A DNA stretch of 63,280 bases, counting the filler, from Folioceros fuciformis (Eukaryota), in NCBI GenBank assembly GCA_049999805.1. It is 8 parts of 8 records of this genome, joined end to end, with 100 filler letters (N's around TTAATTAATTAA, not from the genome) between each part and the next. Parts side by side here need not be neighbours in the genome. Positions count along the whole stretch, not along the records: positions 26,734 to 44,054 come from JBNGIO010003599.1; 7 more parts are not named here. One strand, 5' to 3'. Of the stretch, positions 9,578-44,054 are shown piece after piece (the stretch's first letter is position 1; each line of letters opens with the position of its first letter). The notes below the pieces were generated by a model, which ran no database searches, had not been told where the DNA came from, and was given only the letters and a program-made list of their open reading frames with translations. Position numbers and translations under genes: made by a program.

Positions 9578-9677
9578 NNNNNNNNNNNNNNNNNNNNNNN
9601 NNNNNNNNNNNNNNNNNNNNNTTAATTAATTAANNNNNNNNNNNNNNNNNNNNNNNNNNNNNNNNNNNNNNNNNNNN
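9578..9677. other. Artificial scaffold linker (44N-TTAATTAATTAA-44N)
   Basis: Six-frame stop spacer; an identical structure occurs seven times in the window. Confidence 0.97.
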
Positions 9678-14300: not shown

Positions 14301-14707
14301 TCCGGAAGGGCAACAACATTATCAAAGGCGGGTGCTATTTCTATGCGGATTCCTTTTCGTGTCCAGAAGCATACACGTTGGTGCGTGGGCCCGTCTCTTA
14401 GCGCGTGCCGCATGTGAGGTGAAGGACGAGAGGACTGTAGGCAGAACACTAGTTGTAGATGGCGAATTCCAGCAGAAGATGAGGAAACGACATAGATCAC
14501 CTGTGGGCAGTGAAGCAACGCGTTGAATCCAAATCAAGGGGAGGAATAGGTGGCGCGCAGAACTGCAACAGTTTCTGCCACCCAGTCCACCTGCTGCGCC
14601 TATTCTGAGACCCACGCTGGGGCTGCAGTTGCTGATGCCTCAGCTGCTTTAAATCTGCAGCGCTCGCACGCCTCACTCCGGCCCCCGGTTTGTTGTGCAG
14701 AGATGTG

Positions 14708-15973
14708 ATGGAGGCAAGGCGGCCGGTGTGTCTGGTCACAGGAGGTCGGGGCTTCTTAGCGCGCCACCTCGTATCCCAGCTCATCGGAGCCGGGACATGG
14801 AGCGTGAGGATTGCGGATTTGGGTGAGGCCATCGTGCTCTCCCGGGAAGAGCTCGGCGGGCCGCTCGACCAGGCGCTCCGGAACGGGCTGGCTCACTACA
14901 CTTCCGTGGATGTCCGAAACCGAGCCCAGGTGTTCCAGGCTTGCAAGGGTGTGCTCGCGGTATTCCACACGGCGGCCCCGAGCTCCTGCATCGATGACCG
15001 GGTCCTGCACTTCGACGTGACGGTGGTGGGCACCCAGAACGTGATCGACGCCTGCCAGGCGTGCGGGGTGAAGACGCTCGTGTACACCAGCTCCCCCAGC
15101 GTGGTGATGGACGCGCACGGGCGCACCCCCCTGGTGAACGCGGACGAGAGCGTCCCCTTGGCCAAGGAATTCCAGGACGTGTACGCGGAGGCCAAGGCGC
15201 AGGCAGAATCCTCGGTGCTGAGGGCAAACGGACGCGCCGGACTCCTCACGTGCGCCCTGCGGCCATTTGGGATTTTCGGGCCAGGCGACCAGCTCGCCCT
15301 ACCATCCCTGGTGGCGGGAGCCCGGTCGTGGAAGATGAAGTTCGTTCTGGGAGACGGCGAAAACCTCTTCGACTGGACGTACGTGGAGAACGTAGCCCAC
15401 GCTCATGTCTGCGCCGAGAGGGCGTTGTCCGCCGGCCAGGCGGGCGGGAAGGTGTATTTTATCACGGATGCTCGGCCGCAGAGATTCTGGGACTTCGTGG
15501 GAGACTTCCTGTCCGCAATGGGCTACGCGAGGCCCAGGTACAGGCTCCCCATGAAGCTGCTAATTCCCCTGGCGCATGTTGCAGCCTGGCTGGGCCGGCG
15601 GATGGGGATGAGCGTGGGGCACTTCAAACCCTCCAGGTTGAGATTGGTGTCGGGGACATGGACCTTCAACATCTCCCGGGCCAGGCGCGAGCTGGGGTAC
15701 AAGCCCGTGGTGGATCTGGATGAAGCCATGCGCAGGACCGTGGAGAGCTTCTCCCATATCAGGGCCACGAGTTCTGCAGCAACGCTGCCACCTGCTTCTC
15801 CTTCTCTTCACGCACAGGCTCTGCTTGCGCACTGGGATGCCTTGGCAACCCGAGTGACTACAGCATTACGATTCGTCATCACCCTCATCACCCACTTGTG
15901 GAGTCTACTTGTTTTGCTCTGCATTGGCCATGCCCACGGTTATTCAGTTGGACCTGACGTGCATCGTTTGTAG
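14708..15973 (+). CDS. 3-beta-hydroxysteroid dehydrogenase/C4-decarboxylase-like (ERG26/NSDHL family), intronless
   Basis: Rossmann motif VTGGRGFLARHL, VYTSSPSVV, catalytic YAEAK (YxxxK), TCALRP.GIFGPGD, FDWTYVENVAHAH, and a hydrophobic C-terminal tail; single open frame. Confidence 0.92.
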   Translation: MEARRPVCLVTGGRGFLARHLVSQLIGAGTWSVRIADLGEAIVLSREELGGPLDQALRNGLAHYTSVDVRNRAQVFQACKGVLAVFHTAAPSSCIDDRVLHFDVTVVGTQNVIDACQACGVKTLVYTSSPSVVMDAHGRTPLVNADESVPLAKEFQDVYAEAKAQAESSVLRANGRAGLLTCALRPFGIFGPGDQLALPSLVAGARSWKMKFVLGDGENLFDWTYVENVAHAHVCAERALSAGQAGGKVYFITDARPQRFWDFVGDFLSAMGYARPRYRLPMKLLIPLAHVAAWLGRRMGMSVGHFKPSRLRLVSGTWTFNISRARRELGYKPVVDLDEAMRRTVESFSHIRATSSAATLPPASPSLHAQALLAHWDALATRVTTALRFVITLITHLWSLLVLLCIGHAHGYSVGPDVHRL

Positions 15974-26633: not shown

Positions 26634-26733
26634 NNNNNNNNNNNNNNNNNNNNNNNNNNNNNNNNNNNNNNNNNNNNTTAATTAATTAANNNNNNNNNNN
26701 NNNNNNNNNNNNNNNNNNNNNNNNNNNNNNNNN
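26634..26733. other. Artificial scaffold linker
   Basis: 44N-TTAATTAATTAA-44N. Confidence 0.97.
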
Positions 26734-26734
26734 G

Positions 26735-29044
26735 GGTTGCGAGGTACAGGAATACGCGTTGAGCATCGAGCAGGTCGAGGAGACCGAATTTGGATCTGTC
26801 GAGGATTTGGAAGGACACAATTCTGCGTTTGCGGAGGAGGAGAACACGTTCAGCCAAGACAATCACGTGGTCATCGGGTCCAACGGCAGGAAAGATGGGT
26901 ACAGCGTCAAGAGATACGACTCGGATTTACAGTTCGCACACCGGATGCAACCACACCACAAGGAGCGACAGGTCTACAGTGGGTGGCAGATTGCCGTGCT
27001 GGCATTCCAGACGCTGGGAGTGGTGTATGGAGACATCGGGACGTCGCCCTTGTACGTGTACGCGTCCACGAAGCTGGAGAACCCGGGAAAGGATGATTTT
27101 CTGGGAGCGATGTGTATCATGTTCTGGACTCTGACGATGATCCCGTTGATCAAGTACGTGTTCATTGTGCTCCGGGCTGATGATCATGGGGAAGGAGGGT
27201 CGTTTGCCATCTACTCCAAGTTGTGCCAGGCAGTGAAGATCGGGCAGACTGCAGGAAGGCAGTACACGCCACTGGACTCTGATGTCCATCTGACGTACCA
27301 TAGTGATGCTGTGGGCACTTCAGGATCTGTCCATGCCAAGGCCCGGAATTTCATCGAGAAGAGCAAGGTGGCGCAGAAGGGGTTATTGGGTCTGGTTTGT
27401 CTGGGCACCAGCATGATTCTGGGCGATGGTGTTTTGACGCCGGCTATTTCTGTGATCTCGTCTGTGGAGGGGCTGAAGGAGCTGAATGTGCCTCATCTCT
27501 GGATTGTGGTGACTGCTGCTGTCATCTTGCTGCTGCTGTTCATGCTGCAGAGATTCGGGACTTCCAGGGTTGCTGTCCTGTTTTCCCCGATTATGATGGT
27601 ATGGTTTTTGTGCAATCCGGTCATTGGAATTTACAACATCTGCAAGTTCTATCCTTCGGTGTTCCGGGCAGTCTGGCCTGGGTATGGTGTTATGTTCTTT
27701 AAGAGAAATGGGCTGAACGGATGGAAGGTCCTGTCTGGGCTGGTTCTTGTGATCACAGGCTCCGAGGCCATGTTCTGGGATCTGGGGCACTTCAACCAGA
27801 AGGCCATCAAGCTTGGGTTCACCTGCCTGGTGTACCCTTCCTTGGTCCTCACCTACTGTGGACAGACGGCTTTCTTGATCAAGCATCCTGGTAGCATTGG
27901 CAATGCCTTCTACGATTCCATCCCTAAGCCTGTCTACTGGCCGGTGTTCGGCCTGGCAACACTTGCAGCAGTGGTGGCCAGCCAGGCTCTTATCTCGGCC
28001 ACATACTGTGTGTTCAAGCAAGCCATAGCTTTGGGCTGCCTTCCCAGAATGGAGATCAGGCATACATCGGAGAAGGAGGAGGGGCAGATCTACTGTCCAG
28101 CAGCAAACTACATGCTCATGCTCCTCTGCCTGGCAATGGTTTGCGGTTTCCAGAGCAGTGAGAAGATCGCAAACGCGTATGGAGTTGCTGTGCTGTTTGA
28201 TCTTCTCATCACCACTTCCCTTGTGTCTATTGTCATGCTCTTGGTGTGGAACACGCCCTGGCCTTTGATTGTGGCCTTCTTCTTCACATTCAGCAGCATC
28301 GAACTTACCTACCTGTCATCAGTGATGGTGAAGTTCGCACATGGAGGATGGGTGCCTTTCGGGATTGCAGCAGCATTCCTGGGAGTCATGACTGTCTGGA
28401 TTTACGGGCGTGGGGAGAAGCATGCCTATGAAGTGCAGCACAGGATCAGTGCTGAGAGCCTGCGGGGTCTCCTGACCGGACCTTCTGGCATCACCAGAGT
28501 TCCAGGCATCTGCTTCTTCTACAGCGAGCTGCAGGGGGGGCCGCCTCCTGTCTTCACTCACTATGTGCAGAATGTGCGCAGCTTGCACCGGATCTTAGTC
28601 TTCACCACCATCAGATTCATCCCTGTCAAGAGCGTCATCCCCAGCGAAAGGTACCTTGTCGGCAAGGTGGGATATGGGCCTGGAGTGTACCGGTGCGTGG
28701 CCCGATACGGATACAAAGACCTGGTGGATGTTGCAGAGAAGGGATTCATGTTGCAGGTCATCGAATGCCTGCAGAATTACCTGGAAACCCACGAAATCGA
28801 CACTGATGGTTCCTCGGCAGGAGACGAGCTCCATGAGTTACAAACGGCAGCTAACAGTGGAGCCATCTACGTGAAGGGAATTTCCAGGTTGGAGGTTCCC
28901 GAATCCAGTTGCTGCGGATGGTTCAAGAGAATTTTGATAAACAAGCTCTATTACCTTCTGCAACACAACTGTAGGTCTGGTATTGAGGACTTGCGAGTCC
29001 CACATGCCAATCTTGTCGAAGTCCGTATGGTCTACGACTGGTAA
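26735..29044 (+). CDS. HAK: HAK/KUP/KT K+ (possibly Na+) transporter, cluster-IV-like, intronless over the visible part, 5'-truncated
   Basis: GVVYGDIGTSPLY, ADDHGEGGSFAIYS, GDGVLTPAISVISSVEG, QRFGT, EAMF.DLGHF, EGQIYCP, GGWVP and RVPGICFFYS motifs; the frame is open from the scaffold edge to TAA at 29044. Confidence 0.96.
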   Translation, partial: GCEVQEYALSIEQVEETEFGSVEDLEGHNSAFAEEENTFSQDNHVVIGSNGRKDGYSVKRYDSDLQFAHRMQPHHKERQVYSGWQIAVLAFQTLGVVYGDIGTSPLYVYASTKLENPGKDDFLGAMCIMFWTLTMIPLIKYVFIVLRADDHGEGGSFAIYSKLCQAVKIGQTAGRQYTPLDSDVHLTYHSDAVGTSGSVHAKARNFIEKSKVAQKGLLGLVCLGTSMILGDGVLTPAISVISSVEGLKELNVPHLWIVVTAAVILLLLFMLQRFGTSRVAVLFSPIMMVWFLCNPVIGIYNICKFYPSVFRAVWPGYGVMFFKRNGLNGWKVLSGLVLVITGSEAMFWDLGHFNQKAIKLGFTCLVYPSLVLTYCGQTAFLIKHPGSIGNAFYDSIPKPVYWPVFGLATLAAVVASQALISATYCVFKQAIALGCLPRMEIRHTSEKEEGQIYCPAANYMLMLLCLAMVCGFQSSEKIANAYGVAVLFDLLITTSLVSIVMLLVWNTPWPLIVAFFFTFSSIELTYLSSVMVKFAHGGWVPFGIAAAFLGVMTVWIYGRGEKHAYEVQHRISAESLRGLLTGPSGITRVPGICFFYSELQGGPPPVFTHYVQNVRSLHRILVFTTIRFIPVKSVIPSERYLVGKVGYGPGVYRCVARYGYKDLVDVAEKGFMLQVIECLQNYLETHEIDTDGSSAGDELHELQTAANSGAIYVKGISRLEVPESSCCGWFKRILINKLYYLLQHNCRSGIEDLRVPHANLVEVRMVYDW

Positions 29045-29472
29045 AATCTATCGCAGGTCAGCCCGAAATCTGAAGTATGGCGGGTTGGAAGACAGGATCT
29101 CCCCTTCACCTTGAGGATTGTCCATGTTCAAGGATATCCTCCTGTAACGTAGAATCAGGTCCGAGAGCTGGTTAGTTTTCTAGCAGTTTGCTACCATTAG
29201 CGTAGCAGCAAGTGACACTTGGCGTGTCCAGCTTTGTCTGGCCTGCCACTGCATGTATGCCACTTTGCTTCTCATGTTTTGCGGTTTCGGGGTGAGCCAA
29301 TCGAAGTGAACTTTGATCTCTCGCTTGAATTCTGAAGAGCTGCTTGTGCAGCTGCAGAATTCCATGTGCTACATTGTTAGACTTCGTAACCGGCAGGAGG
29401 TTGTGGACGGGTTTCAAGGGAGTGCTTGTGATCTAGAACTGGTTGTGAATCGAGATCCAACTTGGGGTGTCC

Positions 29473-30429
29473 ATGGCTTCTGTCATCCGACTGGTGGCTC
29501 CAGCTTCGGCTCTCTGTGTTGCTTCCTCTACGCACGGTTCCCCTCATTGGAAAGCAGAGCAGCAAAGAGCGAAGATCAGGTCAGAATGCCAGCGAACGGG
29601 GTTGTCCAAGAAGCATGCGCACGTCTCCACTTCTCAGGTATGGACCAAAGTGATGATGCTGAAGAGCACAGAATCCGTTTGTGGGTCATGTCACGGGTGC
29701 CATTCTTTCAGGGAATGGTTCATTATTGTCAGCACAATGCACGGCGTCTCTGATTTCCTTGTAGTGAACTTGACTTCTATGCTACGAAGTCGCAAGGTTG
29801 TCGACAACATTCTTCTTGACAGTGAGTTTCATCTACAGGATAAACGCCAGGGATGTTCAGATGCCGAAGGTTTTGCCTTGTCAAGACGAGGTGCTGTAGG
29901 GGCTCTCCTCCTCGGCCTTGTTACCCTCTCAGGCAGAGAAGCACACGCTGATGTAAGACGCGATTCTCTATGTTGCCCTCTATGTTGTGAACCAATTCGG
30001 CATCTTGCCTCAATTCGGCATTCTTGGTCACCATGGCAGGAAGGACGATCCAAGGAAGCCGAACAGGCTGCCCAGGTGCAGGAGGACTCGGGCAGAGTAG
30101 CAGAACGCCGGGCTGCTCAGAATGACATCCAGAAGGATGTTGTATGGAGTGCGAAAATCCCTCAAATCTCAACGAAATCCAAAGAGGCAAAACAAGCAGC
30201 CCAGGTGCAGGAAGACTCTGCTAAGGTTGCTGAGCGGAGAAAGCAGTCCTCGTCCAAGCCGGCAGAAACGCTCACCCAAGAGCCCGTTTTCTTCCAACAG
30301 TATCCAGTAGGACAGAAATCGAAAGAGGCTTTGCAGTCCGACCGGGTGAAGCAGGATTCAGGCAAACTTGCAGACAGACGAGAGAAGAGGAAGGAAGCAA
30401 TTTCCAAGCCTGTTGCAATTGGAATGTAG
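29473..30429 (+). CDS. Predicted chloroplast thylakoid-lumen protein (Tat signal) with three internal repeats. Exons 29473-29637, 29839-29952, 30040-30429 (222 aa spliced)
   Basis: Ser/Ala/Arg-rich transit-like N-terminus (MASVIRLVAPASA...), then SRRGAVGALLLGLVTLSGREAHA|D (twin-Arg, hydrophobic core, AxA). The mature part has three SKEAxQxxxVxxDSxxxAxRR repeats. Phase-0 GT-AG introns. Confidence 0.75.
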   Translation: MASVIRLVAPASALCVASSTHGSPHWKAEQQRAKIRSECQRTGLSKKHAHVSTSQVWTKVMMLKSTESVCGSCHGCHSFREWFIIVSTMHGVSDFLVVNLTSMLRSRKVVDNILLDSEFHLQDKRQGCSDAEGFALSRRGAVGALLLGLVTLSGREAHADVRRDSLCCPLCCEPIRHLASIRHSWSPWQEGRSKEAEQAAQVQEDSGRVAERRAAQNDIQKDVVWSAKIPQISTKSKEAKQAAQVQEDSAKVAERRKQSSSKPAETLTQEPVFFQQYPVGQKSKEALQSDRVKQDSGKLADRREKRKEAISKPVAIGM

Positions 30430-31052
30430 AATCTAATGAGCGGGAAGTCTCAGGCTGATCAACTGAAGCCTGGACTTCACTGATTGAGTCAGAGAAAAGG
30501 AGAATAGCTCGAGCCTCGACTGTTTAGCATGTCTACGTTAAAACGCTCACGCGCGATTCCACGTTAAAGCATCAGCTGGATACACTGTAGCTGGACAGCA
30601 AGTTACCGTGCTTCTCACACTTCCGAATTGGATTAGTGCAATTTGGTGATTACAGTCTTTCTTCGACGTCATACATGTCATCCCTGAGCTCGCTCCCAGG
30701 TTTTGCCGGATTGAAAAAGACAAGGAACTGCCTGCACTGTGGAAGGCAGGCAGCCCGCCACCCCATACAACATGACCACAAAACGCCAGGAAGGCATGGA
30801 GATCTGTGAAAAAGACAATACAGACTACAGTGGAGGAAGTAGGTGGGGGGAAGGGCAGAACCCGTGACCCCCGGCGCGGACCTTGTCTACTCCAGATGGG
30901 AACACGGGTGTGGAATCGGTCAAAGAATGAGGTCTGAACCGTGGAGGATCAGAGAATAGATAGTGGCGGAAAGAATGAATTTTACAGAAAGAAAACAGGG
31001 AAGATGGGAACTTTCCGAATGACGACAAATTTCTGTTCAGTTGGTCTCAAGG

Positions 31053-33204
31053 TCAGTCCATAGAGAAGGTGATAGTTCCCACTTGATCGTGAGTGGGCAA
31101 GAAGGGCGTGAGACCAACCTCCTGCAGGATCTTGTCCACGGAGACAAACCTAGGAGTTTCTTCGGCCTCCCTCACCTGCTGCAGCAGCTTGGTTACAGTC
31201 CTCATCTCGGGCCTGGCACTGGGTTGCTGCTTTGTGCAGATGACGCCCAGTTTGAGCATCAGGATTATCCCTGCCAAGTGATCCTTGCAGTAGTCGCTGC
31301 TCTGCAGCAGCTGAGGGTCGATGATGCACTGCATCAAGGTGGCAGGAGATGCAAGGCCTCGTTCGACCCACTCTGATATTGTCACGCCCTCCCCGAAACA
31401 GGAACTGGTGGGTCTCTGCCTGGTGAGGAGCTCCAGCATGAGGATTCCGAAGCTGTAGACATCCTCCTTGGGAGAAGTCTTGAGAGAGTACGCCTTTTCT
31501 GAGGACATCAAACAAAACAAGCAGGGCCTTATCACACTGCACAATATCATCCCAATGCTCAGGAAGTAACACGATTGATGCCTTTCCCTCCTTCTTCTTC
31601 TTCAAAAGATGAATAATGGTGGAACATTGTATGTCAAGATAGCCAGCTACCTGGAGCAGTATAGCCGATGGTGCCGAGATGGGCATCTGATCCGAACTGT
31701 GTGTCCAGGTAGGAGGGGTTCACCAACTTGGCCATCCCGAAATCCGAAATGTGAGGCTCGAAATCAGCGTCGAGCAGGATGTTGCTGGGTTTCAGATCGC
31801 CGTGCACCAAGGAATGAGGGCATTCATGGTGCAGGTACTGCAAACCCAGAGCCACGCCCAGGGCAATCCTGTACCGTCTTTCCCAGCTTAGCCTGCACTC
31901 GAAAGTGGTGCCAAGCGAGCCCTCCAGGTCTGGCCCATAAAGCTGCTGCTCCAGGCTTCCATGCGGCATGTACTCCAGGATCAGCAGCTTCATCTTCACA
32001 TGAGCAACACATCCCAGAATCCTCACCAGGTTCCGGTGCCTGCTCCTCAAGAACGTCTCAAGCTCCCTCCTGAACGTCTGCTCCAAAGTCTTCTGCGACA
32101 GAGTCTGCTGCCCCACGCTGAGCAGCTTGATGGCCACAACTGTCCCATCCCCCAGAATCCCCTTGTANNNNNNNNNNNNNNNNNNNNNNNNNNNNNNNNN
32201 NNNNNNNNNNNNNNNNNNNNNNNNNNNNNNNNNNNNNNNNNNNNNNNNNNNNNNNNNNNNNNNNNNNACACTGTACTGCATCCCCCGCTACCGAGGATGT
32301 GGGCTTCGCTGAAATTGGCCGTGGCTGTCAGGAGATGGTGCACTTTCAGAGGCTTGAGCTTCTTCAGCTTCCTGGACAGAATCCTGACGGGCTCCGCCTT
32401 TAGAGACCCCGCACTCCTGACCCTGCTCAGCTTCCACAGAGCTAGCTTCACCCCCAGAGACACTAGAACCAGGCAGGTGAAGGCCCCGATCACGATCAGC
32501 GATTCTACCAGCTTCGAACCCGAGCTGTCGACAAGGCTCATTCCAATGCAGAAGTTCGGGATCGTGAGATTCTCGTTGCCCGAAAACGCACTGCAGGCGA
32601 ATCTTGGATTCCCGGAGCTGAGCAGGAGAGTCTCAGGAATGGAACCCGAAAGCTGGTTGGAGGAGAGATTAAGTTCCGTGAGCAGAGGAAGCAGCCCGAG
32701 CTCCTCCGGGACAGGCCCTACCAACACGTTCGCCTCCAAGTCCAGAACTCTCAGCTGCAGGCAGCTGCGGAAGCTGGGTATGGACTGGGAGAAGCTGTTG
32801 TGGGCGAGATTCAGAAAAGTCAAATTGGGCAGGTTCTCGCAAATCCGGTCCGGAATACCTCCAGTGAACCCGTTCCCGACCAGATTCAAACCCGACAGAG
32901 CGGAACAGCCCTGTAAAACGAGCCTCCCGCTCAACCCCGCCCAGCTCAAATTCAACCCCGTCACACGATCCTGATCGCAGAGAACCCCTCTCCACGCACA
33001 AACATCCATCGTGGTATTCCCGTCCTCCTCCCAATTCGCCAGCTGAAACTTACCATCCAACGAATCCTTGAACCGTCCCAGGCAAGCCCGATCCTCCTCA
33101 GAGCTCTGGCAGAGGACAGCAACCGGACCCAAGAAACACGCAGCAGCAAACAAGCCCACCGCAATCGCCCAATTAACGTCTGCCCAACACCGTGGGTGAG
33201 GCAT
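31053..33204 (-). CDS. LRR receptor-like kinase 1 (5-LRR BIR-like ectodomain, non-RD FLS2/LRR-XII-like kinase). Exon 1 33204-31651 (spans N gap 32168-32267), exon 2 31498-31053
   Basis: Signal peptide, LRRNT Cys pair, 5 LRRs, TM, GSGGCSTVYKG, VAIK, HGDLKPSNILL, DFG, GTIGYTAP|E with a phase-1 intron, DVYSFG. Confidence 0.93.
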
Positions 33205-34877
33205 GCTGTTCCTCCACCCCCGGCCGCCCAAGCTCCAATCAATCAAATCTCATATCCAGCAATCAATCCTCTCCCAATCTCCGCTCCCGAATTCGCTGGC
33301 CGTAGTCCCAAATCTACCGCCCAACGAATTCTGCTGACTCCCGAGAAGCGAATCGCTCCATCATTGTCCTCCCAACCAATTGCCATCCATGCCAGGCCCA
33401 GGAGGAGGAATCTGTCTTGTCTTGTCTCGTCTGTCCGCCTCTCCCTGTCACAAGCAGCCTGGAGCGGACAGACAGACAAACAAGCAGAAGCAGCTGCAAC
33501 CACAAAGAGACGGAAAGCAGGAGAGAGAAAGGACTAGGTGGGTAGCCGCAGTGCCTGTGAAGCGTCTTGTTCCCAAGGCAGCTGCCTCCTAAAGACAAGA
33601 CACAAAACCGTGCAGAATGAATTCCTGCATCCAACAGGCGCACGGATCCTGTATCACCTGCCAGGCCAGTGCATGGCTTGTTTCCGTCCATGACGCCGAC
33701 GTCTGTTTCCTCGTTCTGTTCCGTCTAAAACAGACGGCGGCAACAGGGATCATCAGTTGCAGTGGAGGTCGAGAGGTACAGGCCGTTAACCAGCTGCCTC
33801 CATCCTCATCACTGACATGCAACATGCAACGCTCCCCCGCTAATTAATCCTGCAGCGTTAAGTACAATTATGGTTCGGTCTGGCCCAATGTCCATCGTAC
33901 CCGAGGCTGTTCCCGGGTGGTGAAGCCCGCTCATCATGGGGAGTGCGAGGATCGCTGCAGCCCGCTACGAATCGCGAGTCGGACGATCTGGGAGGCCCAA
34001 TTAATGACATGTTTATCATAAACCTAGAGGGGGAAATTCGAACCGGGTTCTTGCTTCTTGCGGAAACGCCGGCTATGGTGGGGTTGCAGCAGATCTCGTA
34101 GATATGCCTTCAATTAAGGATCCGAGGCAGGGCCCCCCCCTTGATTGTGCCTGCCGCTGCGCTGCTGCATATAAAAAAAGCAGGAGTGGAGCACTGGATC
34201 AAACGTGTGTCAGGAAGTCAGGTTCAAAACACTTTTCATCTCCCTCGGTTCGCTGCCTCCGGATGCTGTTGGTGAACATTCATTCATAAACAGTATTCAG
34301 GCGGTCACCAGACAGTTCCTGAAACTTCCTCTGTAGACGTGGATAGGTCTTAAGTCAGCCAGAGGAGTAGCTCGACAAAAACTGGCGTTGGAGACGTGTG
34401 GCGACCGTCTTGGGCCCTTGCCTGCTTCTCACCACCATCCTCCTCAGCGCATTAGAATATTGGAATATAGGAACGGCATTCGGACGTGGGTATGGCGACT
34501 TCATATGCGTCATGCCTGCATACATGATTCTTAACAAGATCAGAAGTTGTGTCCTTCGACCCCAAATCGAGAGGGTGTTGGAAACCGGGGATGGGATTAA
34601 AACTTACTTGTGTTCTACGAGTCTTTGCTATGTTACTCTACCAGCATTTGTCCTTGTCCACACTTCACATTTGACTATCAACAACCAGCTACACTTTGCT
34701 AAATATGTGGTAAGTCCTGGGACAAGTTTGATTGTCTGTTCATCACACCTACTTGCAACAAACTAAGTCCTAGTCTTTTCCTTGCAGGAAGCACCTCATT
34801 ACCTTCTCATAGCCCCTTCTAACAACGAGTGACATAGAAGTGCACCCCGAAGATGTCTAATCGCACGAGTATAGGAT

Positions 34878-37120
34878 AAACCTAAACTAATCAAAGTCAT
34901 TTTATGAACTAATTAGTCTTGATCTAGTGAAGCTTGCACCCAAGATCATGAACAAGATCTTGTTGCGACACAACATCTACAATCCAACAGCTCTCTCCAG
35001 CTTGCACCCAAGATCTTGTTGTGATGCAATACACAACATCTACAACCCAAGAGCTCTCTCCATTACACAAGCTTCAAACAGCCCACCATTCTCCAAAGCA
35101 AAAACTATGCATGCTTAGTAATATGAAGGAATGATTCTCCAACCCACAAACTATGCATGCTTAGAAATATGATTTCTTCACAATCGCTTGCAAATGCTTT
35201 CTTCCCAATCACTTGCAAATGCTTTCTTCCATGAATCTCAAATCTTAGGAGATGACATCGCAATTACAATGAACATGCTTAAGACCAAGGAATACATTCT
35301 AAACCTCACCACAACCATATTGAGAAGAAGGCATATGTCAAAGTCTAAGGAATCCATCCTTAACCTCTCCATGTATGGTTATGTGGAGAAGAAAATTACT
35401 TGTCAAAGTCCAAGGAATTCATCCTAAACCTTATCAGTGGATTGGAGAAGAAGTCATATGTCAAAGTCCAAGGAATCATTTGCCTTTATAAGGAGGCATG
35501 CTATCATATTCAAATCTTGCCAATACATTTCATTCAAAACAACAAAGGACACGTCCTTGTCTCAAAACCCAAGCTTATCACTAACTTGGTCTTCAAGAGA
35601 AGATTCTGCAATGAGGTCCATTTACAACAAAGCTAGTATCTATCAAAGTGTGGGTATAGAAATAAGAGTCATTTACATGGTGGCCATGTGGATGATTGTC
35701 TTCTGCATTATAGGTACTTCTACATGGCCTACGCATTTTAATGGTACACAAGACGCATTGGAGCATACCAAGGATGTTACATGAACAAGAACTTGTCATT
35801 GAAGCAAGCAAGCTTGCAACCTTAGAGATTTTGGAACTAGCGCCCATGCAAATGTCATGGTTTTCAGTTTATGGGAAAAGCTTGTTTCAATAGGTCTTGT
35901 CCAAACAAGGTGTCCAAGGTTGAACAATGTAGGTTCATTTCCCCAATACCCTCTAGTAAGCACAATAATGTAGTACCTCACATGTGTCTCGTTTTAGGAT
36001 TCTTAGATGTGGTAACCCTAGCATAATTTGTATCTATCCATAACCTATAATCAACAATTTTGTTTCTTTTTAAGTATTTTTACAGTGAAATAAATTGAGA
36101 ACTCCTAAACAAAACGTGTAGGTGAATAATAATTTTTTTCTTTGATTTTACACAAAAAAAGCATAGTTCGCTCGTCAAACATTATCATTAGTATCATTAG
36201 TAGCATTCTTTCACTTTCTTGTATGAATCTTAAATCTTAGTAAAATATGAGAAAATTGCAGTCATGATAAATATGCTTCAGTCTAAAGAACCCTAGACCT
36301 CACCATAGTCATATGAAGAAGAGTTTGAAGTACATACCAAAGTCAAAGATTTCATCCTAAACTGAAGAAGAAATCATATGTCATAGTCCGAGAAATTCAT
36401 TCAAATGCTGACCAATACACTAGAAGAAGTCATATGTGAAAGGCCAAGGAATTCATTCTAAACCTTACCAGTGGATTGGAGACTAAGTAATATGTCAAAG
36501 GCCAAGGAATTCATCCCACACCTTACCATTGGAGAAAACTTATGTGTCAAAGTCCAAGGAATCACACACCTTCTAAGAAGGCATGCCATCCTATTCAAAT
36601 CTTGCAAATACATTTTTGTCAACAAAACAAAGGACTCTACCCTTGTTCTAAAAACTAAGCTTACCACCAACTTGGTCTTAAAGAGAAGATTCTACAATTG
36701 GGTCACTTTGGAGCAAAGCTAGCATCTATCAAAGTGCAAGCATAGACATAAGAGTGCTTTACATTTTTGCTATGTTGATGATCATAGTGCGCATCATAGG
36801 TGCTTGCTTATGGGATTTTCATGGTACCCAAGAAGCATTGGAGCACTCCAAGAATGATACATGAGAGCTTGCAAGTGGAGCGAGCAAGCTTACAATCCTA
36901 TAGATGTAAGAAATAGAGGCTATGACATATGCAAGAAAGCTTACAATCCTAGAGATGTTAGAAATAGAACCCATGTAAATGTCATAACTTATAATTTATG
37001 GAAAAAGTTTGCTTGAGGTCTTGGCCAAATGAGTTGTCCAAGGTCCGACCCTACAATGGGGTTCATGGCAAAGCTTGCTCAAAAACATGGTGTTTGTGTT
37101 TGAACATATCTTGTCCAAGT
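34878..37120 (-). mobile_element. Copies B and C (tandem) of the same unclassified dispersed repeat, lying between the two RLK genes
   Basis: 35230-35960 and 36220-37120 are colinear with 25180-26270; 34878-34968 matches 26308-26402 (aaacctaa..ctagtgaagc..caagatc..gatcttgttgcg). Confidence 0.7.
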
Positions 37121-37783
37121 TCCCTCCGTAATGGAAGAAAAGAAAAACCCTAACATGTTTTCATCCTGGACAATAATACAATACCTCACAAGACTCTCAC
37201 AAGACTCTAATAGTATTCTTCTAATTGGACTGTTTTTTTAACTTTCCTACTTACGAGTCCCCAACTTTCCCATAGAACTTCAGTCTCTACGACTCAACTG
37301 GAGTCGGGGGTCGCGTCCAAGTTCCTCACCTCTCAGGTCCTTGTGGAGTTCACAATTTCTGGATGTGCCCGTGCCTTAGCTCGGCCCTGAATGTGGACAG
37401 CAAGCAAATGACTGGCACCTCGGGTTTCTTCTAAAGCCCTTCACCTCGAAGTTGTCCTGCAAAACAGTGGAGGAAAATCATCGGGCAATACGCTCAACCG
37501 TAACTGCGGTCACGGTCGACAATGTGATGCTGTGAAATATGATCACTTCTTCCATCCTTGGGCCGGCATGGATGACAGGATTCGAGGAGGTACAAATCTG
37601 ACTTTCCAGGAGAGCGATAGTCTGTAGATTTGTAGATCTGCGAACTTCAGGTAGGGGTCTACATACATTTACAGTTTGAAAGCATATCCACAAAGGGAAG
37701 TCTTTCCTACGGCGAATAGTATCCTAGTTTCCAGGAGATAAAGATTGAGGGCTCCTGGTGGAACAGCGTACGGAGACGAGTTC

Positions 37784-39849
37784 TCAACCTTCCAGCACTT
37801 CAACGATCTCCTCCACAGCAGCCACTTTGGAGGAGATCTTATCCCTGTTCTTCCCGCGTTGTTGCAGCATGCGAACCACGGCTTTCATGTCCGGTCTTGC
37901 GGATGGGGCTTCTTGGGAACATGACAAGCCTAGTCTGCACACCATGCTGATTTCCCGCAGTTGAGCATCGGTAAAGTTCCCGCTGCGAGCTAGGGTTGGA
38001 TCCAGGATCCTGAGCAAATTCTGCTTGACTAGAGCATCGTTCACCCACTGGGACATGGTGACTCCATCCCCGAACAAGGAGCTCGTAGGCCTCTGTCTGG
38101 TAATGAGCTCAAGGAGAAGGATGCCGAAGCTGTACACATCTGCCTTCGGAGAGCTAGTCATGGAGAAGACGTTCTCTGCAGACCCCACATGCGAACACAA
38201 AGTCAAGTCTTAACGTCCAACAAAAAACGCAGAAATGTGCAACAAATGGCGTCGAGGAGTGCATTACCTGGCGCAGTGTAGCCTATGGTCCAGTAAGAGG
38301 CGTTGGACCCAGCACACTCTGACACCAGCTTTGCTACGCCCAAGGGGGAAACATGCGCAACCAAGTCGGCGTCAAGCAGAATGTTGCTGGGGTTAAGGTC
38401 AGAGTGCACCAAAGGTCTCGGACTCTCTTGATGCAGATACTTCAATCCCATAGCCACTCCCAGAGCAATGCCGTATCTTTCATCCCAACTGAGCTGGCAA
38501 TCATTCACCTGCAAAGCTGGACTGCCATACAGGAGCATTTCAAGGCTTCCCTGTGGCATGTAGTCCAGGATGAGCAACATCATGTCCACCTTTGCAACAT
38601 ATCCAAGCGTTCTAACCAGATTCGGGTGGCGGAAATGGCCGACAGCTTCTACAGCCTTCGAGAAGCGTGGCAAGATCATTTCCGGGTCACCCTTGTTCTC
38701 CAAGTTGAGCCACTTGATAGCTACCACCTTCCCATCTGGCAGCTCTGCCTTGTACACCTTACTGAAAGGCCCATATCCGATCTCAAGCTCTTTGCTTAAG
38801 TAGGCTGTTGCAGTCCAGAGGTCCTCGACTATCAATCCTCGACGACTGCCCAGCCTCTTAGACAGAATCCTGACCGGCTCTGTTCCCCTGTTTTCCATAG
38901 GGGGCACTGCTGTAAACGGTATAAGCTTCGCTGACTCTGATCCGCTCAACTTCGCAGGCTTCCCTGGGCCTCGCTTCCACAGTACCATGCACACAAGAAC
39001 CGCTACCGAGAACAACACCAGAGCGCTGGCAACAAGGGCAGCCACCAGCCATATCCTAAACGACTTCCTTCTATTCTCACAGGCTATGCGAGAAAACGAC
39101 TTGCAAAAAGCAGATGGAACAGTAAGACCTGCATTCCCGATGAAGGAGTCCTCGGGAAAGGACCTCGGTGTGCCATCAAGGAACTGCGAACGATTGAGCA
39201 GAGTGGCCGGAATGATCCCCTCAAGTCTGTTGTAGGAAACATTCAAACTACCCAGCCTTGGAAGCTGCCCGAGTTCTGGAGGGATGGTGCCCACCAACTG
39301 ATTACTGTCCAAAGCCAGCGAGTTCAGATACTGGCACATCACAATGTCAGCCGGTATCTCCCCCCGGATGTTGTTGCGGGACAAGTCGAGAGACACAAGG
39401 TTAGGGAATGCCGTAGCCAAGTCATCAGGAATAGAGCCCGAAAACGAGTTGCCGGAGAGCTTGATGGTGGAGAGACCGTCACAAGCTTTCAGAAGATCAA
39501 GCCGGAGCTCCCCTTCAAGCCCGAGCTCTGACAGATCTAGCTGGGAGACATCGCTGGCGCTGGGGTGTCGACATTGGACCCCAGTCCAATTGCAGACAAC
39601 CGGTGATTCAGACAGAGGCGCCAAATTTTTTTGCGGGTCCGTAATGGATGCCTTGAATTCCTTGAGACATGCTTGGGAGCTCACACCCAGCACGCAGCCC
39701 AATAGAATAAGCGCCTGCAGTCCGGCCACCAGGCAGGCAGCTCGCCACCCTTTGCCCATCCCGTTCAACCAGCACATCGCCCTCAAACCTACAAAGTTCA
39801 GGAAAAAAGGAGAAGCCATGGTCAAGGCGCAACGCGAGAAGCACACCAT
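37784..39849 (-). CDS. LRR receptor-like pseudokinase 2, paralog of RLK1. Exon 1 (ATG 39849 or 39759)-38268, exon 2 38175-37784
   Basis: Same 5-LRR ectodomain, the same EPVRILS juxtamembrane motif and the same APE intron. Catalytic motifs are degenerate: HSDLNPSN, and DFG replaced by PLG. Confidence 0.92.
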
Positions 39850-40529
39850 CGCACAGTCCACGACTCCATATCCTTGCACTGTGGATGCAATCAAAATGGT
39901 TAAGGCCCGAGACACGAGTCAGTGTAAGTCAGAGCAACCAGAGTGAAGCGCATTGACTCAGTGTTTTCTAAAAGGTACATGTTTTCTCACAGGTTGAGCC
40001 AAGAGATCCAAATTTTAGACTTGGCCTATTCTAATTTTTATGTCGTTGTCGGGATCGAATCCAGGTCCCCCCAATCCATACTCTACGTAAAACTCAACAC
40101 AGTAACACAACCACACTGCTGTATTTTAATTTTATTTTAATCCTTTTTTAAGTCCCAAGTCTATGTCATTATGCTTGTTGCAAGCTCCTATCCGACATGT
40201 TTCTGCCACGCTTCTATCCCACATGCTTCCACATGGTCCACATCATTTCACTGCAGCTCTTCATACTTCTGCCTGGAGAGGGCATAAAGCATTGTTGCAA
40301 AAAGCTGAGGGATGTTTTAAAAATGGAGACAAACCCATATGCAATACAATCTCAACATGACTATGTACATGGGCTGCATGTACTAGTTTGATGTCATGGT
40401 TTGTGTTACGGGTCTAGAAAATGTTATAACAAGAGCTCAACTTCTATGTTTGCTTATGCATCCCACCCTTATTAGAGTATGGTACTATACTTTGCTCTTG
40501 GGGTTGCTAATTTTTCATAATCTTGATTT

Positions 40530-41279: not shown

Positions 41280-43075
41280 TTTATTTATTTATCATTAGGC
41301 GTATGTAGCCGTGAGGCTATGACGCCGGAACGTGAATCAAAAACATGATTGAATGGACACTTTGGGAAAGCGCAAAAGAAAGAGGATTAGAGCAAACAAA
41401 ATAGCAAATCTAGATAGCTATGTCAATAAGCCTAAGTTAAGTAATTGCCAATCGCCTTGAAGTAAGAGAGAAGTTTTTCCCTGAGTTTGGGAACACTAAG
41501 AAGTTGGCGGATATCGTAGTAAAAGCCTTGAAACACCTGGATCCAAGTGTTGCGAGTGGCCATACACTAGCCAAGAATGTGGTGACGAGTTTCTTCTAAA
41601 GACCTGCATTTCCGACAAAATGGATCCTCTGCAATGTTGAATCTCCTAAAGTAAGCCCCAATAGCCATATGCCCAGTCTGAAGCTAGGTGAGAAATGACG
41701 AGAGCTTACGGTCATGGAGACCAAGGCGTTGTAGCACCAAGGCTGAAGGGCCACCAAGCACCACCCTCTTAAGCGCAGAAGCCTTAGTTGAGGAAACCCA
41801 TCGTAAACGCCACTCCTGTAGAATTGCAGCATGAATTTGCTAGTGAGCTTTGGACACTGATAGGATCCGGTCTTCGCGGGAAATGGGAAGAAGAGTGGTA
41901 GCCTTAGCGATAACATCTGCATGCTCAATACCAACTATATTATGATGGCTCGGAATCCAGTGGAGATTAAGGGAAACCTCCAGATGAGCTACCGAAAAGG
42001 CATGGAGAGATGTCCTACCTTGGAGAGATATGGCTTGTGCTGGGCGAGCCAAAGTGTCCGTTAAAGATATGATAGCTGCTTGATTATCAAGGAAAATTGT
42101 AACTGACGAAATCCTGGGGATGGAAGTAAAGAGGGTGGGCAGGCATGAAATTGCTTTGACCACAGAGAGGAGTTCTGCCTCATAAACCCCGTAGTATGTT
42201 TCTAAACCAAAAGATAATTGATGGACAATATCCCCTTTGAAGTAGAAAACAGCCGCGCCCTCGGCATGACCATCCAAAAGAGAACCATCAGTGTAAATGG
42301 CAAGGGCATCAGGAGTCAAAAGATGTAGGGAATGTGAGGCAATAGCAGAAGTGGGAGATAGTAAAATTATGATGGTTGTGGGTAAAGAAAGAGGAGAGGC
42401 CCAAGGAGGCACGAATCGAGGAAAAATAGTCTCAATGGCAGTGGAGATGGGCAGGCCTAAAGCGGAGTACAGAGTACTAGGGGAAAGGAGTTTGAGGCGA
42501 CTGCGGATAGCATTGTAGTACCGTTTTTTGTAGTTAGTCGTAGGAAGAAAGACTTGATGGATGGGGTGAGAGGGAGGGTAGGAGATGTTGCGGAGGAGAG
42601 AACGGAGAGAATGGCGTTGGAGGCCTAACTCTGTGGGCAGAAGAAAAGCTTCAAATTCCAGGGCATTAATGGAGGTAGTTCGAAACGCACTAGTAATGGC
42701 CCTACAGGCAAGACGTTGAACCCGTTGGAGGTGTTGAATGTGTGTACGACCTCCGTTGAACCAGACATTGTAGCCGTAATCGAGCTTGGGCAGGACAACA
42801 CTAATGTATAATTGTCGAAGAAGCTTGGCATTGAGGCCCCAAACTGAATTCCCAAGAGAGATTATAGCTGACAAAGTACGCATTGCGGAAGCCGTAACCT
42901 GATGAACATGCGTGTTCCAAGTTAACTTGGAATCCAAATAGAAGCCCAAAAACCTATCACACTCGGAGGGAGTGATAAGGGAACCATCGGGTAACGAAAG
43001 AGTACAATCCTTTGTTGATTTCTTACGCTTCAGGGAAAAATGAATAAGTTCAAACTTGTTAGAATCGAACTCCAC
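41280..43075 (-). mobile_element. 5'-truncated LINE (Tad1/I-group-like): RT C-terminus, RNase H and Zn-knuckle remnant
   Basis: KFELIHFS...RFLGFYLDSKLTWNTH...RQLY.SVVLPKLDYG...LQRVQR...AFRTT; RNase H IYTDGS/EAEL/DNQAAI/WIPSH/EHADVIAK; a CxC..ETRHH..G remnant near 41570-41620; an A-rich TAA-like tail near 41280-41297. Confidence 0.88.
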
Positions 43076-44054
43076 GAGGTGCGTAGAAGGGCAAGGGTTA
43101 GCAAGTAGAAGGGCATAGTAAGTGCACATACCTTGCCATCCCTTGCTCATTCATCCACCTTACAAGTCTAGAGGCTATTTTACATTGTACACACAACTCC
43201 ATTTTCATTTAGAACGCAAACTACCCTCCTTGACTATCTCTCTAAAGATTTGCAAACAATCAATTCATATTGTGCTGAGAGTTAATTGTCGTTAATCGTA
43301 GCGGTCCTGTTCCATTACTCAAATCCAGGCAAGGTCTTTTTCACAATTTCATTTCACACTATACATTAGAAGATTGTGAATCTAGCATGGCTACCCATAG
43401 TTTCTCACGTTATCTCCTTTATCTACTTGTCAACAACTTTGCCTTTGCATTTGTCTCTCTTATTGCCTAACTGTCGCAATTTACAATCATTTAATCTTGA
43501 TTGCCATCAATAACTTCAAAAGAACACAATATTTGATGCAAAGCACTAGAGATTCCTATAAGAAAAAACTATCCCATCGCCTTAGGCCAGAAGTCCCTAG
43601 GTCTTTATCAGCGTCTTCTTCATTTACATCTCTACCAAAAAGCCTTCGGCCACCATGTAGGCGGTGAGGCCTATCCTCTACTACTACCTCTCACGAAACA
43701 GCTCCATCACTACCTCAATGTTCTTTTTCGCGAGGAAGGACCATTAACAATGTTTGTTATAAAAGGGGTTTACCCTAAAACCCTTTGTTGAACGTAGAGT
43801 GTTTTTTCTATGCCAAAGAATCCACACAAAAAATAGCCATTTTAAAGAGCTTAGATTTTTCTTATACAAACATAAATATATTTTATTTTTAAAGTTACTT
43901 AATTTCGAGGTTCTAAGCAACAAGGTCGTTCTTAAGTTTGATTGGAATACAAATGTATTGAATGTTTGTAGAACATGCTTGAAATCCTCATCCATAAAGA
44001 AGTCTATCACTTGTTTATAGTAAGTCCACTCTTGCTCCTCGATAACCATTTGAT

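Follow-up and report, generated by a model that had tools for sequence, protein, structure and literature searches.

Receptor kinases with leucine-rich repeats (LRRs) that belong to subfamily XII, EFR and FLS2 among them, are linked to the recognition of pathogen-associated molecular patterns (PMC11259431, PMC10834447), and the subfamily, which is tied to pathogen perception, is reported to expand via tandem duplication (PMC10739070, PMC10834447). At least half of the XII genes of Arabidopsis are arranged in tandem clusters according to PMC10739070, which describes tandem duplicates as the normal origin of XII-type and other stress-related LRR receptor kinases. Two described systems show what a receptor of this kind may do without catalysis. 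Kinase-dead EFR is reported to activate BAK1 allosterically all the same, catalysis being dispensable in EFR (PMC11259431), and the BIR3 pseudokinases are described as forming constitutive complexes with SERK proteins and acting there as negative regulators (bioRxiv 10.1101/2020.02.18.954479). Here we describe two neighbouring receptor-kinase genes, RLK1 and RLK2, on the minus strand of a 63,280-nucleotide stretch of DNA from Folioceros fuciformis (assembly GCA_049999805.1; the whole stretch is called the window below). With a probability of roughly 0.6, we read RLK2 as a receptor or scaffold of the cell surface that works without catalysis and goes back to an old tandem duplication, specific to this lineage, of a non-RD kinase of the XII type with a short ectodomain.

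RLK1 (31053-33204, minus strand) encodes 632 amino acids after splicing. Its first exon runs from the ATG at 33204 to 31651 and its second from 31498 to 31053, where the TGA lies; the model is built on open reading frames (ORFs), translations, Pfam matches and a single terminal stop. RLK2 (37784-39819, minus strand) encodes 647 amino acids, with a degenerate kinase, from the ATG at 39819 through a first exon that ends at 38268 and a second at 38175-37784 (TGA at 37784). The intron of RLK1 (31499-31650, 152 nt) and that of RLK2 (38176-38267, 92 nt) both have GT..AG borders, and each cuts the codon of the APE glutamate behind its first base (phase 1). Both proteins present the same elements in the same order: a signal peptide, an LRRNT, about five LRRs, a transmembrane segment, the juxtamembrane motif EPVRILS and a kinase domain. 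Pfam matched LRRNT_2, LRR_8/LRR_1/LRR_4 and Pkinase in RLK1 and RLK2 alike, and hydropathy gives each of them one 19-residue hydrophobic window at the N terminus and another past the LRRs. EPVRILS lies at 32374-32394 in RLK1 (residues 271-277) and at 38860-38880 in RLK2 (residues 314-320). An earlier note on this DNA had seen two same-strand paralogs about 4.6 kb apart, with a common ectodomain, the EPVRILS motif, the same intron position and an intact RLK2 frame, and the gene models bear this out in full, down to the spacer of 4.58 kb and the 647 open codons of RLK2. No third RLK copy was found within the window.

The spliced models share 275 of 594 aligned residues (46% identity). By BLASTP, identity is 37% from the ectodomain through the juxtamembrane region (E 4e-31), 53% in the kinase as far as APE (E 6e-51) and 50% in the C-lobe (E 1e-38). 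On these comparisons RLK1 and RLK2 are old duplicates, with a similarity well above chance. The true start of RLK2 is uncertain, since the best signal-peptide-like segment begins at a methionine 20 codons past the ATG at 39819. A second in-frame ATG lies upstream of it, at 39849, and the RLK2 transcript contig also contains a 15-codon upstream ORF (39822-39869, minus strand, ATG at 39869) that is out of the RLK2 frame and overlaps the ATG at 39849.

Contigs from sequencing runs document the expression of both genes. Runs X3 and X4 are RNA by the guess of the database, and their contigs, from which both introns are missing, lead us to count them as RNA; X1 and X5 are DNA. X3 bears the organism label of the probable source runs, and X4 and X5 come from a sister species. 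In X3, a contig of 2315 nt spans 37528-39934, over RLK2, and omits exactly 38176-38267, and a contig of 2654 nt spans 30900-33574, over RLK1, and omits exactly 31499-31650. In the DNA run X1 the contigs read through both introns, and the RLK1 intron is retained in X5. X4 holds an RLK1-type and an RLK2-type contig (1907 nt for the latter), spliced at the identical sites. RLK2 is transcribed and correctly spliced, and is not a dead gene; a silent RLK2, which the earlier note had named as fatal to its own proposal, is contradicted by the spliced contigs of X3 and X4. That note had also suggested a check on co-expression, for which the presence of both spliced transcripts within one run, in each of two species, gives weak evidence. 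The sister species carries both gene types, on contigs that each cover one gene with none bridging the two, so the linkage is not visible there.

The same contigs settle the assembly of RLK1. A block of 100 Ns (32168-32267) interrupts the region of the G-loop, and on account of this block alone a stop-to-stop ORF listing breaks RLK1 into separate frames. In the X3 contig, 32166 and 32268 meet across the block with a one-base overlap, so that ..STV-YKG.. is read in frame, and RNA and DNA contigs of the sister species cross it as well. The block has zero length, with flanks that overlap by one base. A frameshift or missing exon concealed by it is ruled out, as the contigs close the gap without extra bases.

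Kinase placement was addressed by maximum likelihood on 55 kinase domains, comprising RLK1, RLK2, the 40 best BLAST matches in the set of retrieved proteins and other matches that carry names. The tree is a quick one, with rows picked from search matches, reference names as the sources give them and neither BIR nor SERK kinases included. RLK1 and RLK2 group in it as sisters (SH-aLRT 100). The pair sits in a 19-row bipartition (SH-aLRT 98) together with Xa21-like, At3g47570-like, At2g24130-like and Selaginella "FLS2-like" rows, while PXC3, MIK2, GSO1-like, IMK2, TMK4 and PBL25 rows fall on the other side. The named reference rows that group with the pair are ones that we take to belong to LRR subfamily XII. 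Their HxD motif is mostly HCD, with some HGD or HSD and one HRD; since the clade is largely non-RD, the HGD of RLK1 and the HSD of RLK2 are normal here. The clade pattern ...DLKPSNILLD.D..AH.SDFG is common to the pair and its relatives. Judged by motifs and tree position, the kinases of the pair are of the non-RD, LRR-XII type.

The nearest solved kinases to the pair are BRI1, BAK1, SOBIR1 and FLS2. The kinase of BIR2 (PDB code 4l68) matches RLK2 with E 7.5e-17, ranked below SOBIR1, BRI1, BAK1 and FLS2. No database match comes near either kinase domain; the best identity is 39%, and this is also the ceiling against any subfamily XII member. Searches for an RLK2 ortholog, both word-indexed (with RLK2 exon 1 and with residues 296-517) and exhaustive over representatives (with a 218-residue kinase piece), gave none, at identities of 44% or less; the exhaustive search returned mostly multi-kinase proteins.

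The catalytic motifs separate the two genes. RLK1 has the complete set: GSGGCS, VAIK, HGDLKPSN (31781-31804, minus strand), DFG (31736-31744) and GTIGYTAPE, and is itself non-RD by its HGD. RLK2 reads GYGPFS, VAIK, HSDLNPSN (38383-38406), PLG in place of DFG (38338-38346) and WTIGYTAPE. In its catalytic loop the aspartate and the asparagine are kept and the lysine has become asparagine; at PLG the Mg-binding aspartate is gone. The earlier note had read VAIK, HGDLKPSN and DFG in RLK1, and GYGPFSKV, HSDLNPSN, PLG for DFG and WT for GT in RLK2, and these readings hold. To them we add the loss of the alphaC glutamate, for RLK2 has FSKA where RLK1 has FRRE. Alignments with BRI1 and SOBIR1 confirm the position, which is occupied by alanine within the RLK2 segment FSKAVE (38647-38664).

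Comparison with the clade sharpens this picture. The alphaC glutamate and DFG are present in 17 of the 17 other clade rows, and RLK2 alone has lost the two. The catalytic-loop lysine is found in 16 of the 17 relatives. The remaining one, P0114 (an Xa21-like protein of Oryza glumipatula), has asparagine there, as RLK2 does; it reads HCDLNPSN, yet keeps DFG and the alphaC glutamate, and the lysine-to-asparagine change therefore recurs in the clade. Among 65 alignment columns that are invariant in at least 85% of the 17 relatives, RLK1 retains 53 and RLK2 48, and the departures specific to RLK2 include the alphaC glutamate, the catalytic-loop lysine and both the D and the F of DFG. RLK2 retains the VAIK lysine, the catalytic aspartate and asparagine, APE, DVYSFG and RP.M. 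These observations support the view that RLK2 is a pseudokinase by the usual sequence definition, under which at least one of the VAIK lysine, the HRD aspartate and the DFG aspartate is absent (in RLK2 the last), and that its damage is centred on catalytic motifs within an otherwise conserved kinase fold. RLK2 is accordingly predicted to be without catalysis.

The ectodomains point in another direction from the kinases. That of RLK1 (32515-33108, minus strand; residues 33-230) has an LRRNT, about five LRRs and a cysteine-containing cap; that of RLK2 (39064-39675, minus strand; residues 49-252) has an LRRNT, about five LRRs and a C-terminal cysteine pair. Scans of hydropathy, N-glycosylation sites and LRRs thus describe two ectodomains of about 200 residues, each with an N-cap, some five repeats and a C-cap with cysteines. 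The best end-to-end matches of the RLK2 ectodomain to solved structures in a single stretch are BIR2 (6fg7, E 7e-32, query residues 3-184) and BIR3 (6g3w and 6fg8, about E 1e-29). Single-stretch matches of the RLK1 ectodomain in the PDB are weaker (BIR3 at E 1e-20, BIR2 at E 9e-19, SERK2 at E 3e-16), and FLS2 matches the ectodomains in multiple stretches, reflecting its length. FLS2-type ectodomains of subfamily XII usually hold more than 20 LRRs. No such long array is found here, where about five LRRs fill the span from LRRNT to the transmembrane segment in both genes. By these comparisons the pair joins an XII-type kinase to an ectodomain of the size of the BIR and SERK co-receptors. The analogy with BIR2 and BIR3 drawn in the earlier note therefore stands for the ectodomain and fails for the kinase, which groups with LRR-XII-type non-RD kinases.

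Divergence from the sister species differs between the two genes. The RLK1-type contig of X4 has 143 differences in 2177 bases (6.6%) and the RLK2-type contig 200 in 1894 (10.6%). RLK2 exon 1, N-lobe included, is 10.9% divergent, and the piece with the RLK1 ectodomain and 5' untranslated region 8.5%; the exon with the RLK2 C-lobe stands at 9.3% versus about 4% for the RLK1 kinase. The 8 gap letters of the RLK2-type contig (+6 nt at 38509-38517, with -1/+1 at 39597/39600) preserve the frame in sum. Classification covered 40 of the 490 differences. These 40 all fall within the 3' half of RLK1, and 33 of them are coding; at most 7 more lie in those pieces. The 33 listed coding differences in the RLK1 kinase are 24 synonymous and 9 nonsynonymous, with pS 0.106 and dN/dS of about 0.11, and the RLK1 kinase is under strong purifying selection. 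In the maximum-likelihood tree the end branch of RLK2 is 0.74 long and that of RLK1 0.37.

The reading that we prefer would begin with an old tandem duplication, specific to this lineage, of a short-ectodomain LRR receptor kinase, which would have given RLK1 and RLK2. RLK1 would have stayed a non-RD kinase able to catalyse, with strong purifying selection acting on it. RLK2 would have lost the alphaC glutamate, the catalytic-loop lysine and the DFG aspartate, all needed for phosphotransfer, and would have kept its kinase fold, ectodomain, membrane anchor, expression and reading frame. Its ectodomain and dead kinase may bind partners, be they ligands, co-receptors or cytoplasmic kinases, and tune signalling up or down. 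A receptor function at the plasma membrane and a partnership with RLK1 are putative elements of this scheme. RLK2 is best read as kept for a non-catalytic role, under sequence constraint that is weak or diversifying, with a residual chance of recent decay.

Several points weigh against this reading. The inactivity of RLK2 is deduced from its sequence, in which the VAIK lysine and the catalytic aspartate are still there. The XII placement depends on the quick 55-row tree, drawn from search matches and without BIR or SERK kinases. The total divergence of RLK2, 10.6%, equals the synonymous divergence of RLK1; if local pS lies between 0.106 and 0.15, pN/pS in RLK2 comes to about 0.6-1.0, and constraint looks weak or diversifying. 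The frame of the RLK2-type gene in the sister species is judged from indels, not from stops or shared degenerate motifs. Finally, a long-term acceleration of RLK2 is not significant, as none of 13 outgroups gave p<0.05 in Tajima relative-rate tests.

The first alternative is that RLK2 is a brake or decoy specific to RLK1, in the manner of the BIR proteins, which would hold RLK1 or a shared co-receptor inactive or soak up ligand or pathogen effectors directed at RLK1, the two genes forming a two-component module. The tandem arrangement on one strand, 4.58 kb apart, the spliced contigs of both genes within single runs of X3 and X4, and the BIR2 and BIR3 matches of the RLK2 ectodomain all suit this model, as does the negative regulation by BIR3 pseudokinases in SERK complexes described in bioRxiv 10.1101/2020.02.18.954479; the rapid divergence of RLK2 would suit an arms-race decoy. 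RLK2 further resembles BIR2 and BIR3 as a single-pass receptor with an ectodomain of about five LRRs and a kinase predicted to be inactive, as theirs is (same source). The kinase domains of the pair, however, are of the XII and not of the BIR type, both by the PDB matches, in which 4l68 is weaker than SOBIR1, BRI1 and BAK1, and by a tree without BIR rows. BIR genes are not known to sit in tandem with the kinase under their control. The ectodomains of RLK1 and RLK2, merely 37% identical, do not imply a common ligand, and synteny of the pair is not observable in the sister species, where no contig bridges the genes. Tandem duplication is, moreover, ordinary for XII-type genes as reported in PMC10739070, and the adjacency of RLK1 and RLK2 needs no functional cause because such duplication yields neighbours of this kind. 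The name of executor, which the earlier note had given to RLK1, is doubtful as well: non-RD kinases of this clade usually lean on an RD co-receptor kinase, and by analogy RLK1 probably relies on a separate one. A module of brake and executor is a conjecture, and a brake specific to RLK1 appears unlikely to us.

The opposite role earns the same low expectation as the brake. Here RLK2, much like EFR or NFR5, would be a non-catalytic partner with a positive effect, which would bind a ligand or partner and allosterically activate a SERK-like RD co-receptor or RLK1 itself. Kinase-dead EFR, FEXL1 and XIIa5, which are of the same clade, are reported still to signal, and the YLH of subdomain VIa is preserved in RLK2 (as KYLH), the site of a tyrosine that is tied to conformational switching in EFR (PMC11259431). 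The fold-defining columns are mostly retained in RLK2, at the 48 of 65 given above. The likeness to NFR5 and EFR would lie in a kinase domain that is inactive or dispensable, with signalling via an active partner (PMC11259431); the difference is that NFR5 has a LysM ectodomain and that EFR is an active kinase by sequence. The same source reports catalytic independence only for XIIa kinases of the genus Arabidopsis, and the joint loss of the alphaC glutamate and the DFG aspartate may block the active-like conformation that allosteric activation requires. The 5-LRR ectodomain is also much shorter than the ligand-binding ectodomains of XII-type receptors. Sequence by itself cannot separate an RLK2 that brakes from one that activates.

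A bolder version, which we rate as less probable than either role, sees the pair as a linked sensor and decoy or guard unit, with the pseudokinase twin as bait for effectors or ligands that target the active one. The cereal tandem kinase-pseudokinase resistance proteins and the sensor/helper NLR pairs embody a comparable link between an active unit and a degenerate one that serves as decoy. They differ in being one polypeptide without an ectodomain, or intracellular, whereas here there are two membrane receptor genes. If the idea were true, paired NLRs and kinase-pseudokinase resistance proteins would have their counterpart at the cell surface in this pair, and the near-neutral rate of RLK2 together with its strict frame conservation would reflect diversifying selection.

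Less probable again is that RLK2 is a transcribed but functionless relic of the duplication, in early decay, with a frame so far unhit. Three catalytic residues are gone, and the 10.6% divergence of RLK2 is close both to the synonymous value of RLK1 and to that of a 666-nt noncoding piece upstream of RLK1, which has 78 differences (11.7%). That noncoding piece, however, has 43 gap letters, and flanking DNA of this kind is full of gaps, whereas the indels between RLK2 and its sister-species counterpart all preserve the frame in sum. In a simulation of neutral substitutions, the 647-codon RLK2 ORF survived 100 changes in 3.4% of trials and 200 changes in 0.15%; because simulated neutral substitutions seldom leave the ORF open, neutral decay of RLK2 is unlikely. 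Both RLK2 splice sites are in use in two species, and its retained kinase columns have survived despite 47-50% divergence from RLK1. The earlier note had inferred a functional decoy or brake from a conserved frame with specifically broken motifs. The pseudokinase part of this inference draws strength from the motif signature, the transcription, the splicing and the RLK2-type gene of the sister species; neutral evolution of RLK2, which that note had named as refuting its proposal, keeps some probability.

Some kinases once labelled pseudokinases have proved active, and RLK2 does retain the VAIK lysine, the catalytic aspartate, the loop asparagine, APE and a GxGxxS loop of the same pattern as in RLK1, but an enzyme working by an unconventional mechanism is very improbable given the joint loss of the DFG aspartate, the alphaC glutamate and the loop lysine, the first two of which are kept in 17 of 17 relatives.

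The preferred reading, a non-catalytic receptor or scaffold, has company among plant LRR receptor kinases. PXC3-like proteins and the "probably inactive" At5g06940-like proteins likewise have broken motifs (for example HLDISSGN and GEIEIS where HRD...N and DFG would stand), and as these are kept over many species, conserved receptor pseudokinases are common. Both groups differ from RLK2 in falling in separate tree clades, in their long ectodomains (proteins of 800-900 residues) and in having other substitutions. A receptor pseudokinase that arises by tandem duplication is of a familiar kind, common among plant receptor kinases. What is mildly unusual here is the XII-type kinase on a 5-LRR ectodomain, and the rapid divergence combined with strict frame conservation.

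The surroundings of the pair are those of a eukaryotic genome by composition, with GC-rich genes among AT-rich spacers. The spacer between RLK1 and RLK2 (33205-37783) is AT-rich, and a repeat search found a direct repeat in it, at about 35276-35850 and about 36379-36975, some 1.08 kb apart and 78-90% identical; each copy contains three 41-nt sub-repeats at a spacing of 56-65 nt. Further contigs of the DNA run match parts of this repeat, which for this reason is probably a dispersed repeat family. Just upstream of RLK2, a 436-codon ORF (41843-43150, minus strand) with an RNase H domain (Pfam E 1.7e-06) is probably a retroelement fragment. On the other side, a KUP/HAK potassium transporter (26690-29044, plus strand) forms one unbroken, intronless ORF of 784 codons that begins right behind an N block. 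Land-plant KUP genes carry several introns, which makes an intronless copy notable. The protein atlas assigns the transporter to Streptophyta, with a best identity of 50%, reached alike by Sphagnum, Diphasiastrum, Ginkgo and Selaginella; since identity tops out at this value, the lineage is not near any proteome in the databases used. In the interval between the transporter and RLK1, a 326-codon ORF (29449-30426, plus strand) is rich in Lys, Glu and Gln, contains the motif KEA.QAAQVQEDS..VAERR three times and has no Pfam match. Elsewhere in the window, Pfam matches a 445-codon ORF (14636-15970, plus strand) strongly to the 3-beta-hydroxysteroid dehydrogenase / NAD-dependent epimerase domain (E 1e-70). 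The window also contains many pairs of 44-N blocks 12 bases apart (such as 9578-9621 with 9634-9677, and 26634-26677 with 26690-26733), in addition to blocks of 100 Ns.

Very little is known about the mechanisms of receptor pseudokinases, in the words of the EFR study (PMC11259431). RLK1 and RLK2 provide a closely matched natural comparison in this respect. They share one architecture and one clade; RLK1 is a constrained kinase, and RLK2 is an expressed, faster-evolving twin without three of the catalytic residues. The pair could inform how immune-type receptor kinases diversified in a lineage whose sequences are at most 44% identical to the proteins in the databases searched.

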